The translations under genes were made by a program, and so were the position numbers. 64,000 nucleotides of DNA, taken from the NCBI RefSeq assembly GCF_003334385.1, contig NZ_QOWN01000003.1, one strand, 5' to 3'. The stretch comes from Escherichia coli (GTDB lineage Bacteria; Pseudomonadota; Gammaproteobacteria; Enterobacterales; Enterobacteriaceae). The number at the start of each line of letters is the position of its first letter. The first letter of the stretch is position 1. Of the stretch, positions 884 to 18,200 are shown piece by piece. The notes under the pieces are model-generated. The model was not told where the DNA came from, made no database searches, and worked only from the letters and a program-made list of their open reading frames with translations.

Positions 884-939
884 GTTGGACTCTCGAAACA
901 GAACATCAGGCCCGAGATGCGGGCCTGTGGGATGCATGA

Positions 940-1233
940 TTAGCCGTAGCGAAAATCAATACCGAAGGTGCCTGCGGGATATTGCCACTGTTCGAGAATA
1001 GTGTTACCGCACAGCACCCGACAGGTGCCGCACTCCAGACAACCGGCGGAATCAAAATGAATGTTTCCTGCGTCATCCTGCTTATAAAGTCCGGCAGGGC
1101 AGGCTTTCATTAATTTATGGAATTCATTGATATCGGGATTTTCCGCCAGAATGATATGCGGGTGGCCCTCATCAACATGGAATTTATTGACGCCTAATTT
1201 GATGTCGACGTTAACCGTAGCGTTCTGGCTCAT
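940..1233 (-). CDS. ydiT: ferredoxin-like protein (FixX-like)
   Basis: 97-aa ORF with a cysteine cluster (CLECGTCRVLC); stop overlaps the ydiS start; gene order ydiQRST. Confidence 0.85.
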   Translation of the reverse strand: MSQNATVNVDIKLGVNKFHVDEGHPHIILAENPDINEFHKLMKACPAGLYKQDDAGNIHFDSAGCLECGTCRVLCGNTILEQWQYPAGTFGIDFRYG

Positions 1234-2519
1234 AGCGCGGTTGCTCCCTTAATGCCATCTTTCAGCAAGTTGATCAGCCCAATTTTCTTCGCATGTCCCA
1301 TGATCATTTTTCGTACCGGCTGGTTTGGTTTGCCGTCGATGGTGAACATCTCGTTCATGATGTCGGCTACCATTCGTGGGTATTGGCTAAACAGGCGCGG
1401 GTTTTCCATCAGCGCCGGGATCTTGCGAAAATGCTGCATATCACGCATGACGCAGCTTTGTTCCAGCTCACGTTTGTATTGCGCCAGACTGCTGGCGGAG
1501 AAATCCGCGCGTTCTTTGGCGGCGATCACCGTTGTGGCGGCAGCCTGAGCCGATGCAATGGCTAAATCCATGCCGCGGACCGTAAAACCCAAATTCAGGC
1601 AGAAGCCTGCGGCGTCACCAACGATCATCACGCCCTCGTTAACCAGTTGCGGCACCATTGCCAGACCGCCTTCCGGCACCATATGCGCGGAATATTCAAG
1701 CAGTTTGCCGCCGCTAATCAGCGGGCGAATGGCGGGGTGTTGTTTAAAATCTTCCAGCATTTGCGGCACGCTTTTTTGCGCATGGGCGATATCACCCAAT
1801 CCACAAACCAGCCCCAAGGATATGGAATCCTTGTTGGTATAGAGAAATCCCCCGCCCATCAGGCCGTCAGAAGGGGAACCGGCAAACAGCCAGGCGGCAC
1901 CTTCCTCGCCCGTAATATTAAAGCGATCGTTGATCTGTTCTGGTGTGAGGCCAATAACCTCTTTAACACCAACAGCGTAATGATGCGGATCGGAAGCGGG
2001 AACCATTCCCAGCGAGCGGCCAAGCATCGAGTTAACGCCATCAGCCAGAATCACCACATTCGCTTCGAGAATATCATCCCCAGCCTGCACGCCAGTGACC
2101 TTGTTTCCTTCACGAACCAGCGCGTCGACGCGAACGCCTGGGATAAACTGCGCGCCCGCCTGCTCGGCTTGTTCCATCAACCACGGGTCCAGACGATTAC
2201 GCAATACGGTATAAGATGCGTGTTGCGGAACATCTGGCTGCTCGCGGTGAAAATCGAGGGTAACGGCGCTTTCTTCGGTTAAGAAGGAGATTTTCTCGCG
2301 TGTGACCTTGCGTTCTACCGGCGCTGATACTGCAAAGCCTGGAATGATTGCTTCAAGTGTGTGGGCATAAAGACGCCCGCCGGTCATGTTTTTACATCCG
2401 GCACTGTCGCCGCGTTCTATCACCAGGACATCCAGCCCGGCTCGTGCCATGACCAGTGCGGCAACGCTACCAGCAACGCCCGCACCGACCACAATGGCAT
2501 CAAATTTGTCATCCGACAT
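1230..2519 (-). CDS. ydiS: FAD-dependent oxidoreductase (FixC / ETF-quinone oxidoreductase-like)
   Basis: 429-aa ORF with an N-terminal dinucleotide-binding motif (VVGAGVAGS). Confidence 0.85.
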   Translation of the reverse strand: MSDDKFDAIVVGAGVAGSVAALVMARAGLDVLVIERGDSAGCKNMTGGRLYAHTLEAIIPGFAVSAPVERKVTREKISFLTEESAVTLDFHREQPDVPQHASYTVLRNRLDPWLMEQAEQAGAQFIPGVRVDALVREGNKVTGVQAGDDILEANVVILADGVNSMLGRSLGMVPASDPHHYAVGVKEVIGLTPEQINDRFNITGEEGAAWLFAGSPSDGLMGGGFLYTNKDSISLGLVCGLGDIAHAQKSVPQMLEDFKQHPAIRPLISGGKLLEYSAHMVPEGGLAMVPQLVNEGVMIVGDAAGFCLNLGFTVRGMDLAIASAQAAATTVIAAKERADFSASSLAQYKRELEQSCVMRDMQHFRKIPALMENPRLFSQYPRMVADIMNEMFTIDGKPNQPVRKMIMGHAKKIGLINLLKDGIKGATAL

Positions 2520-2574
2520 GCGTTATGCTCCCTTCCCGCTGCGTTTACAGCGGGAGATGTGGTTGAAAGGGGAA

Positions 2575-3513
2575 TTAGCGGCTCAACTGGCTAATCAGGG
2601 CAGGGACGACTTTGTAGATATCGCCCACCAGACCGTAGTCGGCATAGTTGAAGATTGGCGCATTTTTATCTTTATTGATGGCGACAATCACTTTTGCGCC
2701 GTTGCCGCCAACCATATGCTGGATCTGCCCGGAGATCCCCAGCGTCAGGTAGAGATCGGATTTCAGCAACACGCCGGAGACACCGATATAACGTTCACGC
2801 TCCATCCAGTTCTCGCCTTCGGCAATTGGACGTGAACAGCCGACTTCAGCATTCAGCACCGCCGCCAGTTCGTGGACCATTTTTAGGTCATCCTGCGCCG
2901 CCAGTCCACGACCGACGCCAACCACACGTTTTGCTTTGCTCAGGTCCACGCTGCTTGCGGCTTTCGCACGGCGTTCGCGACAGAGAATTTCATGACGCGG
3001 AGCAACATAAGGTACCGTTTCTGTCGGGCACTGATGAGAGGTATCACTGGTGCACGGTTCCTGAACACCGGGTGCAAGGGTAATGATCGCCAGCGGGCTG
3101 TTGATCTTTTCCTGAGCGAACGCTAACCCGCCATACATCCGGTGTTCGGCGCAAATGTGACCATCGACAATATCCACCGCCGTGGCATCGTTCACCAGCG
3201 CCGCATTCAGTTGCACACTTAACCGTGCTGCCAGCGCTTTACCACGTTTCGTCGCGGCCAACAGCAACATAGCGGGGTGTTTATCTTTCAGCAGGGCAGC
3301 AATGCTTTCGGCGTAATTTTCAGTGCGTTGCAGCGCGTCGTTTTGCGCAAGAACATAAAGACATTTTGGACCATAAGGCATAACTGCCTGCGCCTGGTCG
3401 GTATTTTGTACAATGGCATACACCTGTTGGCCCCATTGCTGAGCGCCGCCAAACAGTTCAGCATAACGTTCAGGATTATCGCTAAAGACCCAGACGCTGT
3501 TTAATTGACTCAT
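2575..3513 (-). CDS. ydiR: electron transfer flavoprotein, alpha-type subunit (FixB-like)
   Basis: 312-aa ORF between ydiQ and ydiS. Confidence 0.85.
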   Translation of the reverse strand: MSQLNSVWVFSDNPERYAELFGGAQQWGQQVYAIVQNTDQAQAVMPYGPKCLYVLAQNDALQRTENYAESIAALLKDKHPAMLLLAATKRGKALAARLSVQLNAALVNDATAVDIVDGHICAEHRMYGGLAFAQEKINSPLAIITLAPGVQEPCTSDTSHQCPTETVPYVAPRHEILCRERRAKAASSVDLSKAKRVVGVGRGLAAQDDLKMVHELAAVLNAEVGCSRPIAEGENWMERERYIGVSGVLLKSDLYLTLGISGQIQHMVGGNGAKVIVAINKDKNAPIFNYADYGLVGDIYKVVPALISQLSR

Positions 3514-3532
3514 CGTTTCTTCTCCGTAGGCT

Positions 3533-4297
3533 TCAGTTCAGGGCTTTCTTCAGATGTTCCGCCAGCTCGGCAATGGCCTCCGGCGAATCGTTATCGATAA
3601 TGATGTGCTTACGTTCTGTTTGCGGCGGTACGCGAATGCCGACCAGTTCAGCAAGTGGCGCGCTCTGGCTCCAGTCAATATCACTTGCCTGCCACTGATT
3701 TACCGGTTTTTTACCCGCGCCGAGAATGGCTTTCATCGAAGGAATGCGTGGCACGTTAATATCGGAGGTGACGCAGAGCACGGCTGGAACAGAGAGTTCA
3801 ATAACTTCAACATCATCTTCAAGCGTGCGTTCAATCACCAGTGTATTGCCCTGACGCTGAATAGCACTCACTGCATTAATCACCGGAAGTTGCAGAATTT
3901 CTCCGACCAGCAAGCCAACCTGCTGGGCATAAAGGTCGCCGGAACCTTCACCAAAGATCAGTAAATCGAAGCCGATCTTTTCAATTGCTGCCGCCAGCGC
4001 TTTTGCGGTATCGAGAGGCAGTGCATGTTCAAGTTGCGCATCCTGCACCAAATACAGGCTGTGCGGCCCGCGGGATAGCACGTCTTTGCGCACTTTCGAG
4101 TTCTGCAACAATGAGCCGCCAACGGTCAGCGCGGCTATCTCATCGTCATCTGTTGCGAGCTGGCTTGCAGCTTCAATGGCATTGAGATCGAACTGGCTGA
4201 TTTTGGCGTCGGCATTGTCGAAATTCAGGGTGTATTCTGGAGTGACAACAATGTCCTGTTCTTCAGGCACCAGCTTAAAGCAGGTTATTATTTTCAT
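3533..4297 (-). CDS. ydiQ: electron transfer flavoprotein, beta-type subunit (FixA-like)
   Basis: ORF track gives 3533..4396; likely start is the internal ATG at 4295-4297 (MKIITCFKLVPEEQD...), preceded by a Shine-Dalgarno-like AGGAGA, giving about 254 aa. Confidence 0.8.
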   Translation of the reverse strand: MKIITCFKLVPEEQDIVVTPEYTLNFDNADAKISQFDLNAIEAASQLATDDDEIAALTVGGSLLQNSKVRKDVLSRGPHSLYLVQDAQLEHALPLDTAKALAAAIEKIGFDLLIFGEGSGDLYAQQVGLLVGEILQLPVINAVSAIQRQGNTLVIERTLEDDVEVIELSVPAVLCVTSDINVPRIPSMKAILGAGKKPVNQWQASDIDWSQSAPLAELVGIRVPPQTERKHIIIDNDSPEAIAELAEHLKKALN

Positions 4298-4612
4298 GAT
4301 TTCTCCTGTGAGTCGCATACGGAACCATCTCCGATGGAAGGTAAAAATGGCCTGAAAATAGTGTGCGATAGCGGTGCGGGGTTTTCGACGGAGCAAGCTG
4401 TTTTCCTTGCCAACAATCTTGCAAAAAAAATGCGATCGCTAAAACAAAAGTGCAATTTGCGGCAATATAGTTATTCCATGACCGTACAATCTTGCATTCA
4501 GTGTAAATAATCTTGTTTAGCTCTCGCTAAACGCGGTTGTATAACCGCAATACACGCCGTATTTTATCCGGCATATATTGTTTTTGCTTGCTCATGGAAT
4601 AGGGAGGTTGTC

Positions 4613-5524
4613 ATGTATCAACGCTGTTTTGATAACGCCAGTGAAACGCTGTTTGTCGCCGGTAAAACGCCACGGCTTTCACGTTTTGCATTTAGCGATG
4701 ATCCAAAATGGGAGTCCGGACATCACGTTCATGACAATGAAACCGAGTTGATTTACGTCAAGAAAGGGGTTGCAAGGTTTACCATCGATTCTTCGTTATA
4801 TGTCGCACATGCGGATGACATTGTGGTGATAGAACGCGGCAGGCTGCATGCGGTGGCCTCTGACGTTAACGATCCGGCAACGACGTGTACCTGTGCGCTG
4901 TACGGCTTTCAGTTTCAGGGGGCTGAGGAAAATCAGCTACTGCAACCGCATTCTTGTCCGGTAATTGCCGCGGGGCAGGGAAAAGAAGTCATAAAAACCT
5001 TATTTAATGAGCTAAGTGTGATTTTGCCGCAAAGTAAAAATAGCCAAACATCTTCGTTATGGGATGCATTTGCCTATACGTTAGCCATTCTTTACTACGA
5101 AAATTTTAAAAATGCTTATCGTTCGGAGCAGGGGTATATTAAAAAAGATGTTCTGATAAAAGATATTCTTTTCTATCTGAATAATAATTATCGCGAAAAA
5201 ATCACTTTAGAACAGTTATCGAAAAAATTTCGTGCCAGCGTCAGTTATATTTGCCATGAATTTACCAAAGAGTATCGTATTTCCCCTATTAACTATGTTA
5301 TTCAACGGCGTATGACGGAAGCAAAATGGTCACTCACTAATACTGAATTATCACAGGCAGAGATCTCCTGGCGTGTGGGTTATGAAAATGTCGATCACTT
5401 TGCCAAACTGTTTTTGCGCCATGTCGGTTGTTCGCCCAGCGATTACCGTAGACAATTTAAAAACTGTTTTGCGGAACAAGAAATCCTATCTGAATTTCCT
5501 CAACCGGTAAGTCTTGTTGGATAA
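4613..5524 (+). CDS. ydiP: AraC-family transcriptional regulator
   Basis: 303-aa ORF with a C-terminal AraC-type HTH; divergent from ydiQ. Confidence 0.85.
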   Translation: MYQRCFDNASETLFVAGKTPRLSRFAFSDDPKWESGHHVHDNETELIYVKKGVARFTIDSSLYVAHADDIVVIERGRLHAVASDVNDPATTCTCALYGFQFQGAEENQLLQPHSCPVIAAGQGKEVIKTLFNELSVILPQSKNSQTSSLWDAFAYTLAILYYENFKNAYRSEQGYIKKDVLIKDILFYLNNNYREKITLEQLSKKFRASVSYICHEFTKEYRISPINYVIQRRMTEAKWSLTNTELSQAEISWRVGYENVDHFAKLFLRHVGCSPSDYRRQFKNCFAEQEILSEFPQPVSLVG

Positions 5525-5528
5525 ATCT

Positions 5529-5560
5529 GGCGGCGCAGTTTGTTAAGAAGCTGCGCCGCC
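5529..5560. terminator. hairpin between convergent ydiP and ydiO (possible bidirectional terminator)
   Basis: Inverted repeat GGCGGCGCAG ... CTGCGCCGCC with a 12-nt loop in the 42-nt convergent gap. Confidence 0.4.
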
Positions 5561-5566
5561 TGCAGA

Positions 5567-6718
5567 TTATTTGTTCTGATAGTCTTTCAGGATCTGCCGA
5601 CCTGCTACGTAAATCATAATTTCGTCTGTACCGCCGCCGATACGTTCACAACGGACATCACGCCAGAAGCGGGAGACGCGCGCCTCATCGGTATAGCCCA
5701 GACCGCCCATGATTTGAATCGCATCATCAATGACTTCCATTGCGGTACGTGCACAGTACAGTTTTGCCAGCGCCGCGCTGGTGCGCAGTGACTGATGCTG
5801 ATCGGCTTGCCATGCCACTTTCAGCACCATGTTGCGCATGTTGTCGATCTTAATCGCCATCAGCGCCAGTTTTTCCTGGATCATCTGGTTATGACCAATG
5901 GGCTTACCAAAAGCGATACGTTGGTTGGCATAGCGGGCGGCATCTTCAAAGGCGCATTCGGCAAAGCCGGTGCTGCGCGCGGCGTTGATCAGGCGCTCCA
6001 TCTCAAAGTTGTACATCACATTGAGGAAACCCATTCCTTCTTCGCCCACCATGTCGCTCTCTTCAACCTCCACGTTGTCGAGATAGACTTCGCAGGTGCT
6101 GAGCATATGCCAGCCGATTTTATGCAGCGGGTTAATCTTAATGCCGGGCTTACTGGAGTCGACCCACCACAGGGTGAAGGCTTTTTTGGGATCTTTCGGT
6201 TGCGGATCGCGCGCCAGCACCAGCATATACGGGTACTCTTTCGCACCGGTAATAAAGGTTTTTTGTCCGTTGATGTAGACCTTGCCGTTTTTACGCGTGT
6301 AAGTGGTAGTGGCACTGTTGTTATCTGAGCCAGCACCTGGTTCCGTCAACGCCAGGGCATAGGCGGGATCACCCGTTTCCAGGGTGCTCTCTGCCGTTTT
6401 ACGTAGCTGCTCTGCAGAACCGAAACGGCGCATACTGTGAATACATTGACCGTTGGTAATTAAAAATGCCGGAGCACCGCATTTTGACACTTCCATCAGC
6501 GCCAGCATTTGGGTGACGTAATCCGCAGGGATACCACCAAATTCTTCCGGCACGCCAAGCATGGAAATACCGTTATCCGCCAGCGCCCGCATAAACTCAC
6601 GCGGATATGTCCCGTTTTGATCGCAGGTGCGGAAATACTCTTCCGGAAAGTTAGTCGTAATCAGTTCGCGAATACTGGCCAGCAGCAGTTCTTGTTCTTC
6701 AGTTAAAGAAAAATCCAT
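5567..6718 (-). CDS. ydiO: acyl-CoA dehydrogenase family protein
   Basis: ORF track 5567..6772; start taken at ATG 6716-6718 (MDFSLTEEQELLL...), about 383 aa. Confidence 0.85.
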   Translation of the reverse strand: MDFSLTEEQELLLASIRELITTNFPEEYFRTCDQNGTYPREFMRALADNGISMLGVPEEFGGIPADYVTQMLALMEVSKCGAPAFLITNGQCIHSMRRFGSAEQLRKTAESTLETGDPAYALALTEPGAGSDNNSATTTYTRKNGKVYINGQKTFITGAKEYPYMLVLARDPQPKDPKKAFTLWWVDSSKPGIKINPLHKIGWHMLSTCEVYLDNVEVEESDMVGEEGMGFLNVMYNFEMERLINAARSTGFAECAFEDAARYANQRIAFGKPIGHNQMIQEKLALMAIKIDNMRNMVLKVAWQADQHQSLRTSAALAKLYCARTAMEVIDDAIQIMGGLGYTDEARVSRFWRDVRCERIGGGTDEIMIYVAGRQILKDYQNK

Positions 6719-6731
6719 CATTATACTCCTG

Positions 6732-8327
6732 TTAATGAGCCGCTTCAGGCAGGACAAAACCCATCGCCGCATCGATAAATAATCTTTCGTCCATCAGTTT
6801 GAGTTCTGGCGAAATCACTGGGGTGAAATCCATTTTGTCGAGAATATCTTTTTGTAAATCGACGCCAGGGGCGATTTCGATTAAATGCAGGCCGTCTTCT
6901 TTCAGCGTGAATACTGCGCGCTCAGTGATATAACGAACATCCAGCCCTCGCTCGAGAGCGATTTTTCCGCTGAAAGTAATTTCCGGTAGTTCCCGAATAA
7001 ATTTCTTCACCCGTCCTTCCTGGACGATATTTAATTTGCCGTCGGTAATTTCTGTTTTTAAACTGCCCGCAGTTAATGTGCCGCAGAAAATGATTTTCTT
7101 CGAAGTGGCACTGATATCAATAAATCCACCGGTGCCCATGATTTTACCATTGAATTTATGCACGCCGACGTTACCGTGCTGGTCGACTTCAGCAAAACTC
7201 AAATAACAAACATCCAGACCGCCACCGTGATAAAAATCAAACTGGGACGTCATATCCAGAATGGCACGGGTATTCACGTTCGCGCCAAAGGCGATCCCCT
7301 GTGAAGTAATTCCGCCAATCGGACCTGTTTCTACCGTCAGAATAAAGTCATCAGCACAACCTTCTTCTCGGGCGACCAGGCCAATGCCGTCAGCAATACC
7401 GACGCCGACATTCCCCACCGCGCCTTTACGCATTTCGAATAATGCGCGCCGCGCAACTAATTTACGTTGGTTTAGGGGCAGGCTAAGTTTGGTACTGTCA
7501 TCAAGGGTGAAGTCACCAGAAATAAAGCGGTTAACCGGTGCACCGCCATACAGTTGGGTTTGATCCGGATCGACCACCACAATATCCACCAGATAACCCG
7601 GAATACGGACAGATTTAGGATGCAGCGTGGCTTTCTTAACCATTTTCTGCACCTGCATCATCACAATACCGCCGTTATTGTGCACCGCCTGGGCAATAAC
7701 CAATGCGTCGAGATACATCACCTCATCTTCAAAAGTGGCGTAGCCTTCACTGTCGCAGGTGGTAGCGCGAATGAAGGCAATATCTGGCGCAATCGCTTTG
7801 TAATAGAGATATTCTTTGTTATCAAACTCGACCAGTTTAATCAGGTCTTCTTTAGTGACTTCATTCAGTTTGCCGCCTTGCTGGCGTGGATCGACAAATG
7901 TCCCGATGCCAATATCACTAATAATACCAGGCTGGTGGGCTGCGGCGGCGCGTAAGGTTTGTGTAAGTACACCTTGTGGGTAGTTATAAGCAATAATTTT
8001 ATTTTGTTCTGCGAGTTCAGAAATACGCGGCGATTGTCCCCAGTGACCACATAATGCCCATTTCACCAGACCTTCTTGCGCCAGAGGACTAATACCACGG
8101 TCGGCGCGATCGCCAAGCCCTGTTGGACTAATAATCGATAAATTACGTGGTGTTTGAGTCTGTTTATATTTATCAGCAAGAGCAGTAATTAACGTGGTGG
8201 CTTCCAGAATACCGCCGCCAGCGCCTAACACACAAAGTGTTGCTTCGTCGGGAATATAATTCACCGCTTCCTGTGCCGACAGGACCGGCACTCGTCCATT
8301 AATACGAGGTGGTTTTACAGGTTTCAT
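6732..8327 (-). CDS. ydiF: acyl-CoA:acetate CoA-transferase (fused alpha/beta subunits)
   Basis: 531-aa ORF; gene order aroD-ydiF-ydiO. Confidence 0.85.
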   Translation of the reverse strand: MKPVKPPRINGRVPVLSAQEAVNYIPDEATLCVLGAGGGILEATTLITALADKYKQTQTPRNLSIISPTGLGDRADRGISPLAQEGLVKWALCGHWGQSPRISELAEQNKIIAYNYPQGVLTQTLRAAAAHQPGIISDIGIGTFVDPRQQGGKLNEVTKEDLIKLVEFDNKEYLYYKAIAPDIAFIRATTCDSEGYATFEDEVMYLDALVIAQAVHNNGGIVMMQVQKMVKKATLHPKSVRIPGYLVDIVVVDPDQTQLYGGAPVNRFISGDFTLDDSTKLSLPLNQRKLVARRALFEMRKGAVGNVGVGIADGIGLVAREEGCADDFILTVETGPIGGITSQGIAFGANVNTRAILDMTSQFDFYHGGGLDVCYLSFAEVDQHGNVGVHKFNGKIMGTGGFIDISATSKKIIFCGTLTAGSLKTEITDGKLNIVQEGRVKKFIRELPEITFSGKIALERGLDVRYITERAVFTLKEDGLHLIEIAPGVDLQKDILDKMDFTPVISPELKLMDERLFIDAAMGFVLPEAAH

Positions 8328-8469
8328 TGTTAATTCCTGATTCAGATGTGATTTTCCCTACGCCAAATGGAGAATTAGCGCACAGAGACTCACGAAATAT
8401 TTTTATTAAATACGATTGAATATATTTTTTAGTTCGGCGGGGAGGGTGTTCCCGCCGAAATATTATTGC

Positions 8470-9228
8470 TTATGCCTGGTGTAAAATAGTTAATACCGTG
8501 CGCAAATCATTTACCGAGATTTGCCCTGGCGCAGACGCTTTTTTTACCGCACCAAAAGTTGCCGCCGAGCCAAATACTTCACCAGCCAGACGAGAAATTA
8601 CGCCAGTTTTTGCCATCGACATCGTGATAATTGGACGATCGGCATACTGCTCCTGCATCTCCAGGGTCGCGGCAAGCAACGTCAGCACATCGCTGGTACT
8701 TTGCGGCATCAGCGCAATCTTAGGAATATCGGCGTCGAAGGATTGCATTTTGCGCAGACGGGCAATGATTTCTTCGGCTTCCGGCGTTTTATGGAAGTCA
8801 TGGTTGGACATGACTACTTTCACATCATGCGCGTGGGCGTAGGCGACGGTTTCTTTAACCTGATCATCACCGGTAAATAACTCCAGATCGATCATATCAA
8901 CCAGGCCGCTGTCGATGGCTGCACGATTGAGTGCAATATAAGCCTCGGTGGAAATCGCCTGCTCGCCGCCTTCTTTGGCACTGCGGAAGGTAAACAGCAG
9001 CGGTTTTTCTGGCATGGTCTCACGGAGAATTTTTGCTGCCGCCATGACAGACTCCACATTGGAGAGGTCGGCATAGTGGTCCACACGCCATTCCAGAATA
9101 TCAAAGTCCGCTTCACGATAGGCGAGAGCTTCGGATTTCACGCTGGCGATATCTTTCGCCATCAGCGAGACGATGATTTTAGGTGCGCCCGTACCAATGA
9201 CGAGATCTTTTACAGTTACGGTTTTCAT
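8470..9228 (-). CDS. aroD: 3-dehydroquinate dehydratase, type I
   Basis: 252-aa ORF starting [26 protein letters not shown], recognised as AroD. Confidence 0.92.
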
Positions 9229-9258
9229 TTTTTACCCTTTCTGCACGCGGTCAGCCTG

Positions 9259-10125
9259 TCAGGCACCGAACCCCATGACCTGTTTAACATATTCCAGAGG
9301 GAAATCTTTGCCAGTCCATAATGTGAACTGTTCAGCCCCTTGCCACAACAACATGCCGTATCCATCAATCGTTTTGCAACCAGCTTGTTGCGCCTGCTGC
9401 AATAACTTCGTCATATGCGGGTTATACACGCATTCAGTGACCAGAAGTCCCGGATGTAACAGACTGATATCATTAACCAATGATTCATTCTCAAGGGGTT
9501 TCATACCCACTTTTGTGCCATTGGTTAAAATGTCGGCGGAAGCCAGGGCTTCAGCAAAGGCTTGCTGATCGGCGAGATCGGTGACCGTGACGACACAATC
9601 GGTGTTTTCATTAACCCGCTGCGCGAAGGCGAGGGCTTTATCGAAGAACTCATCCCGACGGTTAAAGAGTTTAATTTCTTTTAAACCTTCAATTGCCCCC
9701 TGCGCGCCAATTGCCGTTGAGGCACCACCAGCCCCTAACAGCACCATCGTTTTGCCTTTGATATCAAAACCGCTCTCTTTAATGGCGCGAATATGGCCCG
9801 TGCCGTCGGTGTTATAGCCACGCAGATAGCCATCATCATTAACGATGGTGTTGATGGCCCCCACCAGTTTGGCAGCTGGTGTTAATTCATCAACATATTC
9901 ACACGCCAGTTGTTTGTTCGGCATCGATACACCAGTTCCGCGCATTTTGAGGGCTTTTAATCCTTCAATTGCTCCAGGAAAGCTATCGTTATCCACTTCG
10001 AAGGCCATATAGGTAAATGGCAATCCCGCTTTTTCTAAGGCTTTATTCTGCATTTCGGGCGATAAACTGTGGCGGATAGGATAGGCCATCAACCCAATCA
10101 ATTCGTATTTTGCGGTAACATCCAT
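9259..10125 (-). CDS. ydiB: quinate/shikimate 5-dehydrogenase (NAD-dependent)
   Basis: 288-aa ORF; AroE paralogue directly upstream of aroD. Confidence 0.88.
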
Positions 10126-10136
10126 AATTAACTCCT

Positions 10137-11402
10137 TTAACCTCTATGCTTAATTGTGTTTAACCGGGTGCAAAATTTACGCTCGCCAAACCGCACATCA
10201 TTTTCAGGAATAATGAAAACGCGGTAATAGCGGATAAAAACAATAATTGCGGTAATCAGGGCCAGCAGCGCGAAAGTAAAATCGAGAACAATGATATATT
10301 GCAGGCCGATGTTCGACAGATAACCGGTAATCAGTGGAATAACAAAGTTAGCCAGTCCACCCATCATCATATAAATACTGGTGACTTTGGCTTTGCTTTT
10401 GGGAAAAAACTCTGACATGACCGAAACGCCGAGCTGTAAAATGCCGCCAGCTGCTGAGAAACCGATAACAAAGGCTCCGGCATTGCACACCAGTGGAGAA
10501 GGGTACAGGTAGATAATGGCTGCTGTTATTGTTGCCAGTGCAGAGTTAAATACATTAGCCCAGATGGGCCGGACCATTTTTTTCAGTAGTGCGGCAAAAA
10601 TAAAGACACAGACCAACGAGCCCATACTGTAATAAGAGATGGTTTTTAATGCCTCAGCTTCTGACATACCAGCAAAAGCCATCGCATATTTGGGCATCCA
10701 CACCACAATCACATAAAAGGTCGAGAATGCGGCTACACCGAACAGTACCGATGAAACACCTTCCAGCCAGACTAACGGTTTGCTGTTCATTTGCGGTAAT
10801 TCATTAGTTACGCTGGCGTCCACCAACTGGCTGGGGAATTTGCTTTTCAACAGCATCAGCGTGATCAGTACAAATAGAATACCCGGAATAATCAGCCCAT
10901 AGCCGTACCAGATATTATTGAGCAACATATAGCTCACCAGCATTGGGTAGAACATTTGCCCAAATGACACCATCGCTTTAACCAGTATGACCGCCGAACC
11001 AGAGGCTTTCGGAAAGCATTCCATGAGCGCGGGGTAGCCACCCGTATCCAGCGCTGAGTTAGCGATACCTACGCACACTGCCAGACCGTAGGCGAGAGTT
11101 AAATTCGGGCAAGCGGGAATACCAAAGAAGAATAGCAGATACATTATTACTGCCATTAATATCACCGCCCGACGACCAAACTTATCGGAGATCACACCGA
11201 AGAATAAAATACTGATCAATCGCCCCAAACCGATACCGGAAATTAAGTAGGCAATGCCCGCGTTGTCAGTGGAAAACTTTTCCGCCAGAGATGACATATT
11301 TTGGGCAAGCGTAATAACACTAATGCCGTGCAGGAAGTAGCTGAAGTAAATACAAAGAACAGCCAGGATAAATGGCGTGCTGAAAGCCTTATTTTGAGAC
11401 AT
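10137..11402 (-). CDS. ydiN: MFS transporter
   Basis: Polytopic hydrophobic ORF; likely ATG start at 11400-11402 (MSQNKAF...), about 421 aa. Confidence 0.82.
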
Positions 11403-11628
11403 TTTCACAGCTCCTTGCTGAAAGATAATTTCGTTACCGTACGTATTGTTCTCCGACGGTTTACATAATTACTATACTGAAGATGATTTTCCCTGGGTAC
11501 ATGGCATAAAGTTTATGTTTCCAGGAATATTGCATGTCATAGTTTGTTTTTGATCGCGATTTTCCTTAGTTAGCGCAGAAAGAGTTATTTATCCGTAAGA
11601 TCTTGCATGACCTGAAAAGAATATTGCA

Positions 11629-12843
11629 TTACCCACCCGGAGCGACATTTTCCTTTAGCGAGTGATGCCGCGTTTTTTTGCGGCTGCGTAAGCCGATAAA
11701 CAGTGCCAGTAAAAAACCGATGGCAGCGATGGCGGTATCGAACCACATAATATCGGCAATACTTCTTTGGGACAGATGAGCCGTAATCAACGGAATAGTA
11801 AAGGTCGCAATACTGCCCGCACTGTAATAGATCCCTGTAGCTTTACCTTTAGCGTAAGGGAAACGTTCAGCCATTAACGTCAGGCCAATTTGCACAACAC
11901 CTCCAGCAGAGGTAAAACCAATGACAAAAGCAAATATTATCACCACATAAAATGTGGGATGCAGGCAGACGGTAAACAGAGCAATAAATGAGATAAAGGT
12001 GTACAGCATCAGTAATGTTGTTGGGCGAACGGTATTACGAATGAGTGGAGCGGTAATAAATACACAAAGCAGCGAACCCACGGTGTAGATACTGAGTAGT
12101 TTGATCGACATAGTGTATGACATGCCTGCAACAAATTGTCCGTACTGTGCCAGCCACTGGCTAACCAGATAAAACGTTGCCATTGAGATATAGCCATATA
12201 AGGTATAACTGGCTAAATCGATAATTGAACAGCGATGTTCCGTAGAGCTGGTGGTTTTCTTTATGACAGGTAAGCGACGACCCGGATGGGGTGGGAACGT
12301 ACAACGGTATAAAAACAGAGCGTTAATAAACATAATGCCTGCAGCAATCATAAAGGACCAACCGAACCACAGTTCAGCCCACACTAACAGGCTAATGATT
12401 AGCGGTAATAAAAATTGTCCGCTGGAAACAAATGCTTTAATTAAAATATTGGCTGTCCCAGGTGAGCGTGGAAAAGCTTCCATCAAACTGGGATAAGTGC
12501 CTGCATCGAGAAAACTGTTTGCCATTCCCGCCAGAAAGCCAAAAACATAAGCGATAATGATGTTATTGGTCTGCAGGATGCCAAAAAAGAAGGCCATATA
12601 GCAGCACATCCCGAGCATGATAAAAGGGCGGCGACCAAAGCGATCGGATAATAATCCTGCAAAAAGCAAGACACTTAATCGACCAATGCCCAGCGATGAG
12701 ATAACTATCGAGACACCCGCGGCATTAGTCTGCCAAAGTGTCTCCAGCGAGGCCATATTCAGGCTCATCAAAAGGACGCCCATACCATGCACCAGGTAAT
12801 TAAAATACAACCCAAGTGCGGTAGGGAAATAGGGATTTTTCAT
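11629..12843 (-). CDS. ydiM: MFS transporter
   Basis: 404-aa polytopic hydrophobic ORF, paralogous in character to ydiN. Confidence 0.82.
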   Translation of the reverse strand: MKNPYFPTALGLYFNYLVHGMGVLLMSLNMASLETLWQTNAAGVSIVISSLGIGRLSVLLFAGLLSDRFGRRPFIMLGMCCYMAFFFGILQTNNIIIAYVFGFLAGMANSFLDAGTYPSLMEAFPRSPGTANILIKAFVSSGQFLLPLIISLLVWAELWFGWSFMIAAGIMFINALFLYRCTFPPHPGRRLPVIKKTTSSTEHRCSIIDLASYTLYGYISMATFYLVSQWLAQYGQFVAGMSYTMSIKLLSIYTVGSLLCVFITAPLIRNTVRPTTLLMLYTFISFIALFTVCLHPTFYVVIIFAFVIGFTSAGGVVQIGLTLMAERFPYAKGKATGIYYSAGSIATFTIPLITAHLSQRSIADIMWFDTAIAAIGFLLALFIGLRSRKKTRHHSLKENVAPGG

Positions 12844-12942
12844 AGGTTCTACTTAGCAAAGGTGCTTTAAAAAGTGAAGCGATGTTGTGTCAGCATCCGT
12901 TCATTATTGTTGTAACAACGACAATTCCTTTCTGTGGAAAAA

Positions 12943-13299
12943 TTAACAAAGCCGCTCCAGATCGTGTGCATATAATTCAGCAGCTACCGATTGATAGATC
13001 TTCCAGTCAATAAAATTGCCATCAGGGTAGACTCGTTGAAATGCGGTTAAGTCGGGGAAAAAACGCATGGTGTTGTTGCCGATGCGGTTATTTATTTTCT
13101 CTATGATGGCATGAAGATGTTTTTTTCTTTGCTGACGCATAGCCAACAGTTGCTCGACTACACGATCAGGAATGGCACACTTGCCATTTTCCCACTGACG
13201 CCAGCTTTCACTGTCACCGGTCTGGGCAATCCAGGTCGCGCATTCATCAATAGTCATGGCAAAAATATGGCGGAGTGCCTGGAGTTCATAAGCGTTCAT
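12943..13299 (-). CDS. ydiL: small conserved protein of unknown function
   Basis: ORF track 12943..13326; start taken at ATG 13297-13299 (MNAYELQALRH...), about 118 aa. Confidence 0.7.
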   Translation of the reverse strand: MNAYELQALRHIFAMTIDECATWIAQTGDSESWRQWENGKCAIPDRVVEQLLAMRQQRKKHLHAIIEKINNRIGNNTMRFFPDLTAFQRVYPDGNFIDWKIYQSVAAELYAHDLERLC

Positions 13300-13436
13300 C
13301 GTGTAATGGCTGCATGAAATAAACAATAAAATATAAATAACATTATCAGCCTGCTGACGGCTTGAAGAGAGTCACAGTATCTTGTGCAACATTATTGGAA
13401 AGAGTGAGGGGCGAGGTAGCGAAGCGGAAAAATGTT

Positions 13437-13542
13437 AAAAAAAAGCCCATCGTGGGAGATGGGCAAAGACTACACACAGCAATTCGTTGTTTCACTCAGG
13501 GGATTTCCATGCTTATAAATCAATATGTTGATTTATAACCGT
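13437..13542 (-). ncRNA. rprA: RprA small regulatory RNA (RpoS translational activator)
   Basis: Reverse complement reads ACGGTTATAAATCAACATATTGATTTATAAGCATGGAAATCCCC...CCCATCTCCCACGATGGGC followed by a T-run (terminator hairpin); matches RprA as recalled, between ydiL and ydiK. Confidence 0.85.
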
Positions 13543-13727
13543 GAGCTAATAGTAGGCATACGGACTTTTTGCGTCGATCAGATTCGTCTCATTAGTTTAA
13601 AAACTGTAAAGAATTTGCGACAGGTACTACCAGCTGAATGGCGGTAAGCAGGAAAATATGGGGAAGAGCAAGCAAATATCAATTAGCGGTGGTTAACAAT
13701 CAGGCGGCAGAGCCGCCTGATGAGAAA

Positions 13728-14840
13728 TTACTTATTCGGTTTCTCGATTTCGCCAAGTTCTTCGAGAATTTCTTCCGGTTGGTCCGTCGGCGGCGGGACT
13801 TCTTCCACCCACGCGGCAAACAGACGCCAGGAAACGGCTAACAGAACCGGACCAATAAACAGACCGATCATCCCGAAAGCAATCAAACCACCAATAACGC
13901 CAGAGAGAATCAGGATCAGCGGTAAATCGGCACCCATGCGAATTAACATTGGGCGGATGACGTTATCCAGCGTGCCAACCACACCGCTCCACACTAACAA
14001 TACCGTTCCCCAGGTGGTATCGCCAGTCCAGTAGAGCCAGATAATCGCCGGAATCAGTACCGGCAACGGGCCAAGCTGGACAAGGCAGGAGAGGATCATT
14101 AACACCGTTAGCAACGTTGCATAAGGTACGCCGGATACGGCGAGGCCGATACCGCCAAGCACTGCCTGTACTAACGCCGTCACCACCACACCCAGCGCCA
14201 CCGCGCGGATAGCCTGTGCCGCCAGCAGCACGGCGGCATCTCCGCGAACGCCTGCCAGACGGGTTGCAAAATGGCGAATGCCTTGTGCCACCTGTTCACC
14301 GCGCCAGTACAGCAGGGCACTGAAGAGAAGCATCAGCGCACAATGCACCATAAAGCGCCCGATATGCGCCGCCTGCCCAACGAACCAGGTGGTGGTGGTG
14401 CCAATATAAGGGCGGACTTTCGCCATGATCGCCGTCCCCCCCATATCCAGCAAGTTGTGCCAGCCTGCATACAGCTTCGCGCCAATCACCGGAATGGTAT
14501 TAAGCCACGCCAGATCGGGTAACGTCATGTCACCGCTGGAAATGGCTTTAATTAGCGGGCCGCTGCCGTCGACGATACTGTTAACCAGCAAAGCAATAGG
14601 GATGATAAACACCATCACTAATAACAGCGTCATCACCAGAACGGCGAGAGAGCGGCGGCCAAACATGATCTTTTGCAAACGTAACAATACCGGCCAGGTG
14701 GCGATAACCACCGTACCGGCCCATGCAAAGCCGAGAATAAAGGGTTGAACAATCCACAGACATGCCACAATCATGATGGCTAAAAACAGCACCGAAAGCA
14801 GAATTTGTGCGACATCCCTGGGCTGACGAACATTTACCAT
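13728..14840 (-). CDS. ydiK: inner-membrane protein, AI-2E / PerM (UPF0118) family transporter
   Basis: 370-aa polytopic ORF. Confidence 0.82.
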   Translation of the reverse strand: MVNVRQPRDVAQILLSVLFLAIMIVACLWIVQPFILGFAWAGTVVIATWPVLLRLQKIMFGRRSLAVLVMTLLLVMVFIIPIALLVNSIVDGSGPLIKAISSGDMTLPDLAWLNTIPVIGAKLYAGWHNLLDMGGTAIMAKVRPYIGTTTTWFVGQAAHIGRFMVHCALMLLFSALLYWRGEQVAQGIRHFATRLAGVRGDAAVLLAAQAIRAVALGVVVTALVQAVLGGIGLAVSGVPYATLLTVLMILSCLVQLGPLPVLIPAIIWLYWTGDTTWGTVLLVWSGVVGTLDNVIRPMLIRMGADLPLILILSGVIGGLIAFGMIGLFIGPVLLAVSWRLFAAWVEEVPPPTDQPEEILEELGEIEKPNK

Positions 14841-15228
14841 AACTACTTTTCACCTTTTTTGTGCGTCAAATCGTCGACGCGACGTGAACACGCGAAACTC
14901 ACCTGCATAATGATGAGCAATTTCAGCGGTTTTTAACAGGCCGATTCTGCCCTTAATTCTGATGGGCGTGTTAGAAAAAAATGTGGTACAACAACTCAGG
15001 CAACACGCAAACGATTTACTCGTCGTATTTCAAGTTGCATGTGCTGCGGCTACGTTCGTTCACCCCAGTCACTTACTATTGTAAGCTCCTGGAGTTCACT
15101 CGCTTGCCGCCTTCCTGCAACACGAAATCCATAGAGTAAACAAACATCACCTTTCAGTGCGCTATTGCAGCAGCCTGAAAGAATAGTGTATCGACCTACA
15201 TCACAGACCGCAGGAAAGGGTCAATATA

Positions 15229-18200
15229 ATGATTCCACAGATTTCCCAGGCACCCGGCGTCGTTCAACTGGTGCTTAATTTTTTGCAAGAGCTGGAGCAA
15301 CAAGGTTTTACCGGCGATACGGCGACAAGTTATGCCGATCGTCTGACAATGTCGACCGACAACAGTATTTACCAACTTCTCCCCGATGCGGTGGTATTTC
15401 CGCGTTCAACCGCAGATGTGGCGCTGATCGCCCGTCTTGCCGCGCAGGAACGCTATTCATCGCTGATCTTTACCCCCCGCGGCGGCGGCACCGGCACTAA
15501 CGGTCAGGCGCTCAACCAGGGGATTATTGTTGATATGTCCCGCCATATGAACCGCATCATCGAAATTAACCCTGAAGAGGGCTGGGTGCGCGTTGAGGCC
15601 GGGGTGATAAAAGATCAACTCAATCAGTACCTGAAACCGTTCGGCTACTTTTTTGCGCCGGAACTTTCGACCAGCAACCGGGCAACGCTCGGTGGGATGA
15701 TCAATACCGATGCATCCGGTCAGGGATCGCTGGTCTATGGCAAAACGTCAGATCACGTACTTGGCGTACGCGCGGTGTTGTTGGGGGGCGATATTCTCGA
15801 TACGCAACCTTTACCCGTCGAATTGGCGGAAACGCTGGGTAAATCCAATACCACAATCGGGCGAATTTATAACACGGTTTATCAACGTTGCCGTCAGCAA
15901 CGCCAGTTAATTATCGACAACTTCCCCAAACTTAACCGCTTTCTTACCGGTTACGATCTGCGTCATGTCTTTAACGATGAGATGACCGAGTTCGACCTGA
16001 CGCGCATTCTGACGGGTTCAGAAGGGACGCTGGCCTTTATTACCGAAGCGCGGCTGGATATTACACGCTTGCCTAAAGTGCGCCGTCTGGTGAACGTCAA
16101 ATATGACTCTTTTGACTCTGCGCTGCGTAACGCGCCGTTTATGGTTGAGGCGCGGGCGCTTTCGGTAGAGACGGTGGACTCAAAAGTGCTGAATCTGGCG
16201 CGGGAAGATATTGTCTGGCATTCCGTCAGCGAGTTGATTACCGATGTGCCTGACCAAGAGATGCTCGGGCTGAACATTGTGGAATTTGCTGGTGATGATG
16301 AGGCGCTGATTGATGAGCGGGTAAATGCACTCTGTGCGCGGTTGGATGAGCTGATCGCCAGTCATCAAGCAGGTGTCATCGGCTGGCAGGTGTGCCGTGA
16401 GCTGGCGGGGGTTGAACGTATCTATGCAATGCGCAAAAAAGCCGTTGGTCTGCTTGGCAATGCCAAAGGTGCCGCTAAGCCAATTCCGTTTGCTGAGGAT
16501 ACCTGCGTACCGCCGGAACACCTGGCGGATTATATTGCTGAATTTCGCGCGCTGCTCGACAGCCACGGCTTAAGCTACGGTATGTTCGGTCACGTCGACG
16601 CAGGTGTCTTGCACGTCCGTCCAGCGCTGGATATGTGCGATCCTCAACAAGAGATTTTGATGAAGCAAATCTCTGATGACGTGGTGGCGCTGACTGCGAA
16701 ATACGGTGGTTTGTTGTGGGGCGAGCACGGCAAAGGTTTTCGCGCTGAATACAGCCCGGCGTTTTTCGGTGAGGAACTTTTTGCAGAACTGCGCAAAGTG
16801 AAAGCGGCATTTGACCCGCATAACCGACTCAACCCAGGGAAGATTTGCCCGCCAGAAGGTCTCGATGCGCCGATGATGAAAGTGGACGCGGTGAAGCGCG
16901 GTACATTCGATCGGCAGATCCCCATTGCGGTACGCCAGCAGTGGCGCGGTGCGATGGAGTGTAACGGCAACGGTTTATGCTTCAACTTTGATGCCCGTAG
17001 TCCGATGTGTCCGTCGATGAAGATCACCCAGAACCGGATTCATTCACCGAAAGGGCGCGCAACGCTGGTGCGTGAATGGCTGCGTTTGTTGGCGGATCGC
17101 GGCGTTGATCCACTCAAACTGGAACAAGAACTGCCTGAATCCGGCGTCAGTTTGCGGACGTTAATTGCCCGCACGCGCAATAGCTGGCATGCGAATAAAG
17201 GCGAATATGACTTCTCACACGAAGTCAAAGAGGCGATGTCGGGCTGTCTGGCCTGTAAAGCGTGTTCGACCCAGTGCCCCATCAAAATTGATGTGCCGGA
17301 GTTTCGCTCTCGTTTTCTGCAGCTCTATCACACCCGTTATTTACGCCCGCTGCGCGACCACCTCGTCGCTACGGTCGAGAGCTACGCGCCGCTGATGGCA
17401 CGCGCGCCGAAAACCTTTAACTTCTTCATTAACCAGCCGCTGGTGCGCAAACTCTCGGAAAAACATATCGGCATGGTTGATTTGCCGCTGCTGTCGGTCC
17501 CCTCGCTACAACAACAAATGGTGGGGCATCGCTCGGCAAACATGACGCTGGAACAGCTTGAATCTCTCAATGCAGAGCAGAAAGCGCGCACAGTGTTGGT
17601 GGTGCAGGACCCCTTTACCAGCTATTACGATGCGCAAGTGGTGGCGGATTTTGTCCGTCTGGTCGAAAAATTAGGTTTCCAGCCTGTGTTACTGCCATTT
17701 TCGCCAAATGGCAAAGCCCAGCATATTAAAGGTTTTCTTAATCGTTTTGCGAAGACGGCGAAAAAGACGGCGGATTTCCTCAACCGTATGGCGAAGCTGG
17801 GTATGCCAATGGTGGGCGTCGATCCGGCGCTGGTACTTTGTTATCGCGATGAATATAAACTGGCGCTGGGCGAGGAGCGTGGCGAGTTTAACGTCTTACT
17901 GGCGAATGAATGGCTGGCAAGCGCACTTGAGTCACAGCCAGTGGCTACAGTCAGCGGTGAATCATGGTATTTCTTTGGTCACTGTACCGAAGTTACCGCC
18001 TTGCCGGGTGCGCCAGCACAATGGGCCGCGATATTTGCCCGTTTTGGCGCGAAACTGGAAAATGTCAGCGTGGGTTGCTGCGGCATGGCAGGGACTTACG
18101 GACATGAAGCGAAAAACCATGAAAATTCGCTCGGGATCTATGAGTTATCCTGGCATCAGGCTATGCAGCGACTGCCGCGTAACCGCTGTCTGGCGACCGG

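Follow-up and report, generated by a model that had tools for sequence, protein, structure and literature searches.

The carnitine system encoded by caiTABCDE and fixABCX combines a transporter, a coenzyme A (CoA)-transferase, a priming ligase, a dehydratase that makes a double bond and a reductase of the acyl-CoA dehydrogenase (ACAD) family, with electrons supplied by an electron-transfer flavoprotein (ETF), FixC and FixX from a neighbouring operon. In Acetobacterium woodii, CarABCDE forms a CoA loop leading to an enoyl-CoA reductase of ACAD type that has an ETF of its own, and uses a plant-derived α,β-unsaturated acid as electron acceptor. Here we analyse aroD, ydiB, ydiN, ydiM and ydiL of Escherichia coli, which occupy positions 8470-13299 of a 64-kb window (the whole stretch of contig NZ_QOWN01000003.1 that was studied). 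Their surroundings suggest that a cluster of about 13 genes, comprising ydiL, ydiM, ydiN, ydiB, aroD, ydiF, ydiO, ydiP, ydiQRST and fadK, has these five at its upstream end. Its list of parts is that of the carnitine system. We propose by analogy, with a probability of roughly 0.55, that the cluster would encode a Cai/Fix-like or Car-like CoA-dependent pathway that imports quinate or shikimate, converts it through YdiB and AroD, and reduces the ring C=C bond.

Judged by sequence, the closest characterised paralogues of what we call module A (ydiN-ydiB-aroD-ydiF-ydiO, ydiP and ydiQRST-fadK) belong to the carnitine system. That system differs from the ydi cluster in that CaiB is a family III CoA-transferase (CoA_transf_3) whereas YdiF belongs to family I, the transporter is a BCCT antiporter in lieu of a major facilitator superfamily (MFS) protein, and the regulator is CaiF rather than the AraC-type YdiP. 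In addition, a crotonase makes the double bond on the CoA ester of the carnitine pathway, whereas in our model AroD would do so on the free acid, and the ydi substrate is a predicted one. The Car system shares with the ydi cluster the CoA loop (transferase and priming ligase), the ACAD-type reductase and the ETF, but it bifurcates electrons with ferredoxin and has no partners of the FixC/FixX type; YdiS and YdiT of the ydi cluster point instead to a quinone link. The Car substrate is a cinnamate, compared with the cyclohexene carboxylate predicted for ydi.

The quinate systems qui (Acinetobacter and Pseudomonas), qsuABCD (Corynebacterium) and qut/qa (fungi) share with the ydi cluster an upper pathway that leads to 3-dehydroshikimate by way of a transporter, a dehydrogenase for quinate/shikimate and a dehydroquinase. 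These systems continue with a dehydroshikimate dehydratase and the protocatechuate branch, in place of which the ydi locus has a C=C reductase; the ydi dehydroquinase is of type I, unlike theirs. As for reduction of the same compounds, Whiting and Coggins are said to have found in 1971 that Lactobacillus plantarum anaerobically reduces quinate and shikimate to dihydroshikimate and dihydroxycyclohexane carboxylate. [quoted passage not shown] According to a preprint (Little et al., bioRxiv 10.1101/2022.12.26.521950), Sutterella wadsworthensis can use shikimate as a respiratory acceptor for growth, with hydroshikimate as the product; for this organism and Eggerthella lenta the net chemistry, from the shikimate enoate to hydroshikimate, is the same as we predict. 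The accessible part of that preprint credits periplasmic flavin reductases with such activities, proposes no ACAD/ETF system and names no enzyme for Sutterella. ShiA, the shikimate/dehydroshikimate transporter of E. coli, has its superfamily and an overlapping proposed substrate range in common with YdiN and YdiM, but shiA is unlinked to pathway genes and the protein similarity is that generic to MFS transporters (by local BLASTP, E at best 0.003 with YdiN and 0.024 with YdiM), so we rejected the idea that YdiN and YdiM are ShiA paralogues.

Gene content of the cluster

Gene names were transferred from the RefSeq annotation of the E. coli K-12 MG1655 record, to which a 6-kb query around the five-gene locus is 100% identical. 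From the ydiL end, the cluster reads as follows:

12943-13299, minus strand: ydiL, small helix-turn-helix protein of the Aca2/YdiL family (Pfam PF08965 Aca2_YdiL, E 3e-61)
11629-12843, minus strand: ydiM, MFS transporter of the module B type (identity to transporters of enoate-reductase operons)
10137-11402, minus strand: ydiN, MFS transporter of the module A type (MFS match and RefSeq annotation)
9259-10125, minus strand: ydiB, NAD(P)-dependent quinate/shikimate dehydrogenase (NF009390, 670 bits against a cut-off of 349)
8470-9228, minus strand: aroD, type I 3-dehydroquinate dehydratase (TIGR01093, 292 bits, above cut-off)
6732-8327, minus strand: ydiF, family I CoA-transferase (RefSeq annotation and family scan)
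5567-6718, minus strand: ydiO, ACAD-family enzyme (similarity to CaiA and CarC)
4613-5524, plus strand: ydiP, AraC-family regulator with a cupin ligand-binding domain (annotation and locus comparison)
3533-4297, minus strand: ydiQ, ETF beta (RefSeq annotation)
2575-3513, minus strand: ydiR, ETF alpha (RefSeq annotation)
1230-2519, minus strand: ydiS, FixC-like ETF-quinone oxidoreductase (RefSeq annotation)
940-1233, minus strand: ydiT, FixX-like ferredoxin (RefSeq annotation)
1-883, minus strand: fadK (ydiD), 5' part of an acyl-CoA synthetase gene cut by the window edge (RefSeq annotation)

Annotation and family scans agree with the preliminary description of the first five genes, whose outer borders, 8470 and 13299, are the aroD stop codon and the ydiL start codon. 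AroD, which converts dehydroquinate to dehydroshikimate, is E. coli's biosynthetic enzyme; its orthologues lie within the same cluster in 42 of 44 proteobacterial loci. The structure matches of YdiB, PDB 1npd and 1o9b, are YdiB itself. YdiN and YdiM are 36% identical to one another; both match the aromatic acid:H+ symporter model TIGR00895 (8.6e-11 and 4.4e-10, respectively) far under its 418-bit cut-off, Pfam finds only MFS_1 in either, and a 2023 study assigns them to the aromatic acid:H+ symporter family TC 2.A.1.15 (PMC10588857). YdiL, a presumed regulator, covers PF08965 over its full length (residues 1-118, E 3.1e-61) and matches structure 1s4k at 5e-47 and Aca2 structures at an E of about 1e-14. 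No anti-CRISPR neighbour accompanies it at this chromosomal position between rprA and ydiM, where it is kept across Enterobacterales.

Among the downstream products, YdiO is counted with the poorly characterised genes in the literature; it is 48% identical over its full length to the crotonobetainyl-CoA reductase CaiA, and it matches the caffeyl-CoA reductase CarC (PDB 6fah_C) with an E of 1.9e-45. YdiQRST are 45-62% identical to FixABCX. The Pfam domain CoA_trans is present in YdiF orthologues, and the best NCBIfam match of YdiF, below cut-off, is the staphylococcal fatty-acid degradation protein FadX. By annotation, a hydratase, a hydroxyacyl-CoA dehydrogenase and a thiolase are missing from the cluster.

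Conservation of the neighbourhood across genomes

About 100 other genomes were compared, and 80 genome loci encoding relatives of YdiN and YdiM (individual loci are cited below by L numbers) were scored by tblastn with the E. coli neighbour proteins. A shikimate/quinate dehydrogenase and a dehydroquinase lie within 10 kb of the transporter relative in 69 of the 80 loci, and in 42 of the 44 proteobacterial ones, the other two being truncated contigs. YdiF- and YdiO-like genes are present in 41 of these 42 loci and ETF genes in 39 (the exceptions are truncated contigs or Telmatospirillum); most also have ydiP and ydiS/ydiT, and often fadK. The suggestion in the preliminary description that the five genes form an uptake-and-conversion module for quinate, shikimate or dehydroshikimate, not pure biosynthesis, is supported by the pairing in 69 of 80 loci and by an oxidative cluster in Telmatospirillum, and it had been published already: the link of ydiN/ydiM to shikimate genes dates from 2006 and 2023 (PMC4585142, PMC10588857). 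According to the summary in PMC4585142, Johansson and Liden (2006) saw ydiN, ydiB and aroD co-induced under carbon limitation in a shikimate producer and proposed YdiN as a mover of shikimate or by-products. Deletion of ydiN raised the shikimate titre about 1.3-fold in a producer strain (PMC8788726). In the 2023 study, about 75% of YdiM/YdiN homologues neighbour shikimate-pathway genes, and in Klebsiella ydiM lies between ydiB and aroD (PMC10588857).

The association is kept through at least four gene orders, those of Enterobacterales, Sutterella and the metagenomic loci L089 and L094. Enterobacterales and Sutterella have in common the collinear run ydiN-ydiB-aroD-ydiF-ydiO, with ydiN first; in the betaproteobacterium Sutterella, fadK-ydiT-S-R-Q is divergent from it. 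YdiF and YdiO of Sutterella are 80-84% identical to those of E. coli, and YdiN 64-69%. The type strain of S. wadsworthensis (L047) carries module A. Locus L089 (G+C 42%) is one tight operon, ydiN-ydiF-ydiO-ydiQ-ydiR-ydiB-aroD-ydiS-ydiT, with ydiB and aroD (a type I dehydroquinase) interleaved between the ETF and ETF-quinone oxidoreductase genes, and L094 (G+C 38%) has yet another order and extra ACADs. By BLASTP, orthologues of YdiB, AroD, YdiF and YdiO are 63-88% identical and the electron-transfer proteins 44-69%; YdiF is 83-84% identical in Sutterella and L094, YdiO 80-93% across all module A loci, and FadK orthologues in the same cluster 57-60% in Sutterella and 47% in L094. YdiO orthologues of at least 80% identity are always accompanied by the trio of dehydrogenase, dehydroquinase and transporter. 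YdiP is the sole regulator common to the module A variants examined, and it was not detected within the examined stretch of S. wadsworthensis L047.

Telmatospirillum is the sole oxidative example among the loci. Its YdiN relative (52%) is part of an oxidative quinate cluster whose other members are a TetR regulator, a dehydroquinase of type II, a gene of the shikimate dehydrogenase family and a 634-aa QuiC1-like dehydroshikimate dehydratase with AP_endonuc_2 and glyoxalase domains. A tblastn search over the loci with this Telmatospirillum dehydratase, a query of the QuiC1/QsuB type, gave no match, and no relic of a qut/qa/qui-type enzyme, in the 22-kb E. coli locus or in any of 43 enterobacterial and Sutterella loci.

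Several other neighbourhoods were observed. The L094 contig (1-21146, metagenome SRR31913091), an expanded variant of module A, encodes three ACADs, two AraC regulators and two MFS proteins, with a desulfoferrodoxin gene between the ligase and CoA-transferase genes and a gene of the shikimate kinase family at its upstream edge. Beside the fadK end of L047 (19-3283) are a TtrS/TtrR-like two-component system and a 477-aa reductase of the flavocytochrome c family, both absent at that place in S. seckii (L044). An E. albertii-type contig (L096, 4504-15054) and Desulfovibrio desulfuricans (L095, 5134-17537) each combine a YdiO-like ACAD (63-68%), ETF genes, an MFS gene, a family III CoA-transferase and a second ACAD, with no shikimate genes in either; in Desulfovibrio a ligase and FixC/FixX-like genes are present as well. 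Outside E. coli, the plasmid-borne homologue closest to YdiF (59%) is encoded on a megaplasmid of Enterococcus raffinosus, in an operon with a type II dehydroquinase. There (L101, NZ_CP081847.1, 8949-13763), a LysR gene and the YdiF-like CoA-transferase are accompanied by a MaoC-like dehydratase, ketopantoate-reductase-family and VOC-family proteins and the dehydroquinase, which may constitute a different CoA-dependent hydroaromatic pathway. Nine Clostridium loci (L054, L056-L059, L064, L065, L068, L074) consist of a two-gene unit of LysR and a YdiM/YdiN-family transporter with no pathway genes within 10 kb; the enzymes may be encoded elsewhere in those genomes.

Alternative reductases and the proposed origin of ydiL and ydiM

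In Firmicutes, the trio, with a transporter of the YdiM type, is joined to C=C reductases of other families. Thirteen loci (Clostridium, Bacillaceae, Megasphaera, Sporolactobacillus and Liquorilactobacillus) combine it with a 665-692-aa enoate reductase with Oxidored_FMN and Pyr_redox_2 domains, of the family that includes FadH, 2-enoate reductase, BaiCD and naphthoyl-CoA reductase (NCR), and 12 Lactobacillaceae loci combine it with ApbE and a 796-aa fumarate-reductase-like flavoprotein. One of the two types is present in 25 of the 27 Firmicute trio loci; the remaining two loci lie on cut contigs. One upper pathway is thus accompanied in turn by three C=C reductase systems unrelated to each other, a pattern that reads as non-orthologous displacement and that we consider the strongest argument for function; on the basis of this alternation we argue that the product of YdiB and AroD, 3-dehydroshikimate or shikimate, would be the substrate of the reductase. 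The BaiCD-like and ketosteroid-dehydrogenase-like affinities among the alternative reductases hint weakly at the enone dehydroshikimate.

An enoate-reductase operon also occurs in Klebsiella aerogenes, Pantoea allii and Erwinia rhapontici, where genes for the enoate reductase, a shikimate dehydrogenase, a YdiM orthologue and a dehydroquinase are followed by a divergent LysR gene. YdiM is 68, 59 and 60% identical to the operon transporters of Erwinia, Klebsiella and Pantoea, respectively, and 54% identical to one from a Firmicute, compared with 36% to YdiN. In Erwinia, ydiL (50% identity) is directly upstream of the reductase operon (L100, 6365-6721), and ydiL is absent exactly where ydiM is absent (L041, L042 and Sutterella). 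A LysR gene lies between ydiM and ydiN in Yersinia, Dickeya, Brenneria, Serratia/Symbiopectobacterium and Prodigiosinella, and the Yersinia protein is 63-67% identical to the LysR of the enoate-reductase operons. We term the arrangement of ydiL, the four-gene operon and LysR module B, which Erwinia, Klebsiella, Pantoea and many Firmicutes have kept complete. From these relationships we infer that ydiL-ydiM, with lysR where it is kept, is a vestige of such a module after loss of the enzymes, and that the Escherichia/Citrobacter lineage then lost LysR too, leaving the 220-bp spacer between ydiM and ydiN. Of the earlier idea of a remnant or cryptic module, the word remnant would accordingly fit ydiL-ydiM, in a sense not foreseen, whereas neither word is supported for ydiN-ydiB-aroD, which is the intact front half of a larger conserved cluster.

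A shared upstream element and other spacer signals

The regions upstream of ydiN and ydiQ contain one and the same element, found by reading upstream regions across genera. The spacer features are as follows:

11511-11534, minus strand: 24-nt element TGCAATATTCCTGGAAACATAAAC, about 109 nt before the ydiN ATG
4400-4423, minus strand: second copy of this element, TGCAAGATTGTTGGCAAGGAAAAC, some 103 nt ahead of the ydiQ ATG
11597-11608, minus strand: half-site ATGCAAGATCTT in the ydiM-ydiN spacer (pattern match)
11618-11629, minus strand: half-site ATGCAATATTCT in the same spacer (pattern match)
4486-4497: extra half-site in the ydiP-ydiQ spacer (pattern match)
8433-8459: G+C-rich hairpin TTCGGCGGG-N9-CCCGCCGAA in the 142-bp aroD-ydiF spacer

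Allowing up to 3 mismatches, the pattern TGCAAKATWNTKGSNAAVNWAAAC matches the window twice, before ydiN and before ydiQ, where 0.12 matches are expected. Over 1.78 Mb of loci it occurs at the same two positions in nearly all proteobacterial loci, S. wadsworthensis included, with 2 stray matches; because the pattern was derived from these sequences, close relatives are in part bound to match it. What is informative is that two different promoters carry one element that is otherwise absent. The half-site pattern ATGCAAKATYNT has 3 matches in the window against 0.22 expected, all in the ydiM-ydiN and ydiP-ydiQ spacers, and TGCAAGAT half-sites recur beside the AraC (YdiP) orthologues of L089 and L094. 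We take the 24-nt element to be a candidate operator of the AraC-type YdiP, which probably controls both the ydiN and the ydiQ promoters through this shared, TGCAAGAT-containing element. An FNR chromatin immunoprecipitation peak is also reported at ydiP/ydiQ (PMC1802558).

Two other candidate signals were rejected. The exact 11-mer repeat ATGCAATATTC has 3 matches against 2.06 expected, and only the longer cross-species pattern is significant. As a sigma-54 promoter, the element has TGGCA, but in E. coli GG and GC are spaced 17 nt apart, and other genera do not have the downstream GC. An Rfam scan of positions 1-16000 found RprA and no riboswitch or leader. The ydiM-ydiN spacer measures 226 bp from the annotated ydiN ATG and 220 bp, the length given previously, from the upstream GTG of the longest ydiN open reading frame. 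That ydiN and ydiM are separately transcribed, as had been supposed, is plausible given the conserved element between them; a consensus scan for promoters and terminators found nothing in this spacer and fewer promoter-like sites than in shuffled sequences. The hairpin between aroD and ydiF is without a U-tract for minus-strand transcripts and is a probable partial terminator or processing site between the halves of module A.

The locus within E. coli

The locus is matched in all 5426 complete E. coli genomes, in 5315 of them over at least 80% of the 6-kb query. Annotation places no integrase or tRNA at its borders, and its G+C content is modestly low (44-49% between 4 and 14 kb, compared with 51-56% for most 1-kb windows on either side); it is therefore core genome and not an island in the mobile-DNA sense, as the word used in the preliminary description might imply. 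In a few strains (PC6, SX12 and OY754443), an IS1 transposase is annotated inside the region and the match is split in two, and the cluster is therefore occasionally disrupted by insertion. Spacers elsewhere in the locus are short: 11 bp between ydiN and ydiB, 30 bp between ydiB and aroD, and 99 bp between ydiL and ydiM. One assembly has a 668-aa protein joining YdiN to YdiB, with MFS and shikimate dehydrogenase domains; because the genes are only 11 bp apart in K-12 (10126-10136), this may be a frameshift or assembly artefact and not a real fusion. Upstream of ydiL, at a distance of about 135 nt and in the same orientation, are the gene for the small RNA RprA (13435-13542, minus strand; Rfam RF00034, 118.5 bits) and its terminator hairpin.

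A predicted reductive hydroaromatic pathway

The identities of the genes, their conserved surroundings, the cis-element shared by two promoters and the Cai/Fix paralogy are established above; from them we infer substrates, directions of transport and electron flow, and a regulator. YdiN would import quinate, shikimate or 3-dehydroshikimate. YdiB and AroD would take quinate through dehydroquinate to dehydroshikimate, reversibly reduced to shikimate, giving an α,β-unsaturated cyclohexene carboxylate in which the ring double bond is created at the AroD step. YdiF, primed by the ligase FadK, would load CoA onto the hydroaromatic acid, and the resulting ester would be that of shikimate or of dehydroshikimate. 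YdiO would then reduce the ring C1=C2 bond with electrons delivered by YdiST (FixCX-like) and the ETF YdiQR, and YdiF would pass the CoA on to the next substrate molecule, releasing a dihydro product such as dihydroshikimate. Module A is intact, and by analogy with the known systems it is predicted to serve as an electron sink or a respiration-like process. The wider proposal is that E. coli, many Enterobacterales and Sutterella possess an unrecognised hydroaromatic respiration in which the 13 mostly uncharacterised genes would import plant-derived quinate or shikimate and reduce the ring double bond as a CoA thioester with electrons from the quinone pool; we hold this more tentatively, at a little under even odds. 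In a literature search with most subscription journals outside its coverage, we found no paper linking ydiF or ydiO to shikimate or ydiB, or shikimate to enoate reductases, and none assigning genes to quinate/shikimate reduction by L. plantarum.

Several points weigh against this pathway or parts of it. To our knowledge, no experiment ties E. coli YdiF, YdiO or YdiQRST to hydroaromatic acids, and E. coli is not known to us as a reducer of shikimate or quinate. Campbell and colleagues reportedly discussed fadK, ydiO and ydiQRST in 2003 as genes of anaerobic fatty-acid β-oxidation. YdiP has been assigned to cold-shock regulation in a published study, and a role in copper uptake and in the biogenesis of bo3 oxidase has been connected with ydiM (PMC10588857). 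Co-occurrence within Enterobacterales could be largely inherited synteny; independent support comes from Sutterella, the two metagenomic arrangements and the reductase displacement, and L089 and L094 are possibly Enterobacterales too. A YdiO homologue at 74% identity stands alone, and the relatives at 63-68% in Desulfovibrio and E. albertii are members of paralogous clusters in which the CoA-transferase is of family III.

The junction within module A is a further such point. A hairpin is present in at least 6 of the 14 aroD-ydiF spacers read (130-300 bp), those of E. coli, Citrobacter amalonaticus, Kosakonia, L041 and both Sutterella, with sequence not conserved; no conserved motif was found in the 14, only non-homologous hairpins, and the shared element is absent before ydiF. 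Because of the hairpin in this spacer and the absence of the element before ydiF, ydiN-ydiB-aroD and ydiF-ydiO may be separate transcripts. For Sutterella, the shikimate activity may come from a source other than module A: in the preprint an E. lenta flavin reductase is induced by shikimate (bioRxiv 10.1101/2022.12.26.521950), S. wadsworthensis has dozens of flavin reductases, one adjoining the cluster, and the 477-aa flavocytochrome-c-family protein is an alternative candidate for the reported shikimate reductase.

Alternative explanations

It is possible to account for the locus by salvage only, with YdiN, YdiM or both importing environmental quinate, shikimate or dehydroshikimate, YdiB and AroD feeding aromatic amino-acid biosynthesis, and the adjacency of ydiF, ydiO and ydiQRST functionally meaningless. 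AroD is biosynthetic, YdiB is a reversible quinate/shikimate dehydrogenase, about 75% of the homologues of this transporter family are tied to shikimate-pathway genes (PMC10588857), and the 1.3-fold gain in shikimate upon ydiN deletion fits re-uptake (PMC8788726). We nevertheless consider this unlikely as a full account, since it leaves unexplained why, in about 66 of 69 loci, the trio has beside it a C=C reductase of one of three unrelated types, why ETF genes flank ydiB and aroD in the L089 operon, and why the ydiN and ydiQ promoters have an element in common; a salvage role can coexist with the reductive pathway. That ydiF, ydiO, ydiQRST and fadK serve anaerobic β-oxidation of short- or medium-chain fatty acids and merely adjoin an unrelated shikimate operon seems distinctly less likely again. 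The RefSeq names (medium-chain fatty-acid-CoA ligase, acyl-CoA dehydrogenase, acyl-CoA:acetate CoA-transferase), the sub-threshold FadX match of YdiF, the aroD-ydiF spacer with its hairpin and without the shared element, and the existence of YdiO-like/ETF clusters without shikimate genes would all fit it. Such coincidence is hard to reconcile with an association kept through four gene orders, including the interleaved one, with the whole set in Sutterella, where the 80-84% identity of YdiF and YdiO exceeds the 64-69% of YdiN, with a cluster that has no hydratase, hydroxyacyl-CoA dehydrogenase or thiolase, or with the Enterococcus YdiF homologue in a dehydroquinase operon.

Very unlikely, in our judgement, is the view that the transporters are exporters or carry unrelated cargo, with YdiN handling hydroaromatic by-products and YdiM serving either isoprenol efflux or copper homeostasis together with the biogenesis of bo3 oxidase. 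YdiN was indeed proposed as an exporter or back-importer of aromatic by-products (Johansson and Liden 2006, as summarised in PMC4585142), and ydiM deletion abolishes bo3-dependent growth and slows 64Cu uptake (PMC10588857). Both transporter types are nonetheless found inside hydroaromatic-enzyme operons in many phyla, and the view overlaps with the reductive pathway, in which one transporter could export the reduced product. The least credible account makes the locus a remnant of an oxidative qut/qa/qui/qsu cluster that has lost its dehydroshikimate dehydratase and protocatechuate branch. The Telmatospirillum YdiN relative (52%) beside a QuiC1-like dehydratase speaks for such an origin, but among the enterobacterial and Sutterella loci the tblastn search for the dehydratase was negative in all 43, none of the 5426 genomes lacks the E. 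coli genes, which are intact, and the conserved downstream route is a complete C=C reductase instead.

Implications for E. coli and for gut metabolism

As first described, the locus restates a published association and is of modest interest. The predicted reductive pathway, if true, would give one testable function to a block of about 13 genes of E. coli K-12, most of which (ydiF, ydiO, ydiP, ydiQRST, ydiN, ydiM and ydiL) are without experimental roles, and it is directly testable in that strain. It would explain the purpose of YdiO and YdiQRST and answer the 20-year-old question of why E. coli has YdiB although it does not grow on quinate. In shikimate producers, ydiB and ydiN have already been deleted empirically, and ydiF and ydiO would become further targets. 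The same reading would supply candidate genes for the shikimate respiration of Sutterella and for the way in which lactobacilli, clostridia and Klebsiella metabolise quinate and shikimate reductively. It would also identify genes behind the conversion of dietary quinate and shikimate by gut bacteria to cyclohexane carboxylates, the precursors of hippurate, a reductive metabolism that bears on what becomes of chlorogenic and quinic acid from the diet in the gut.

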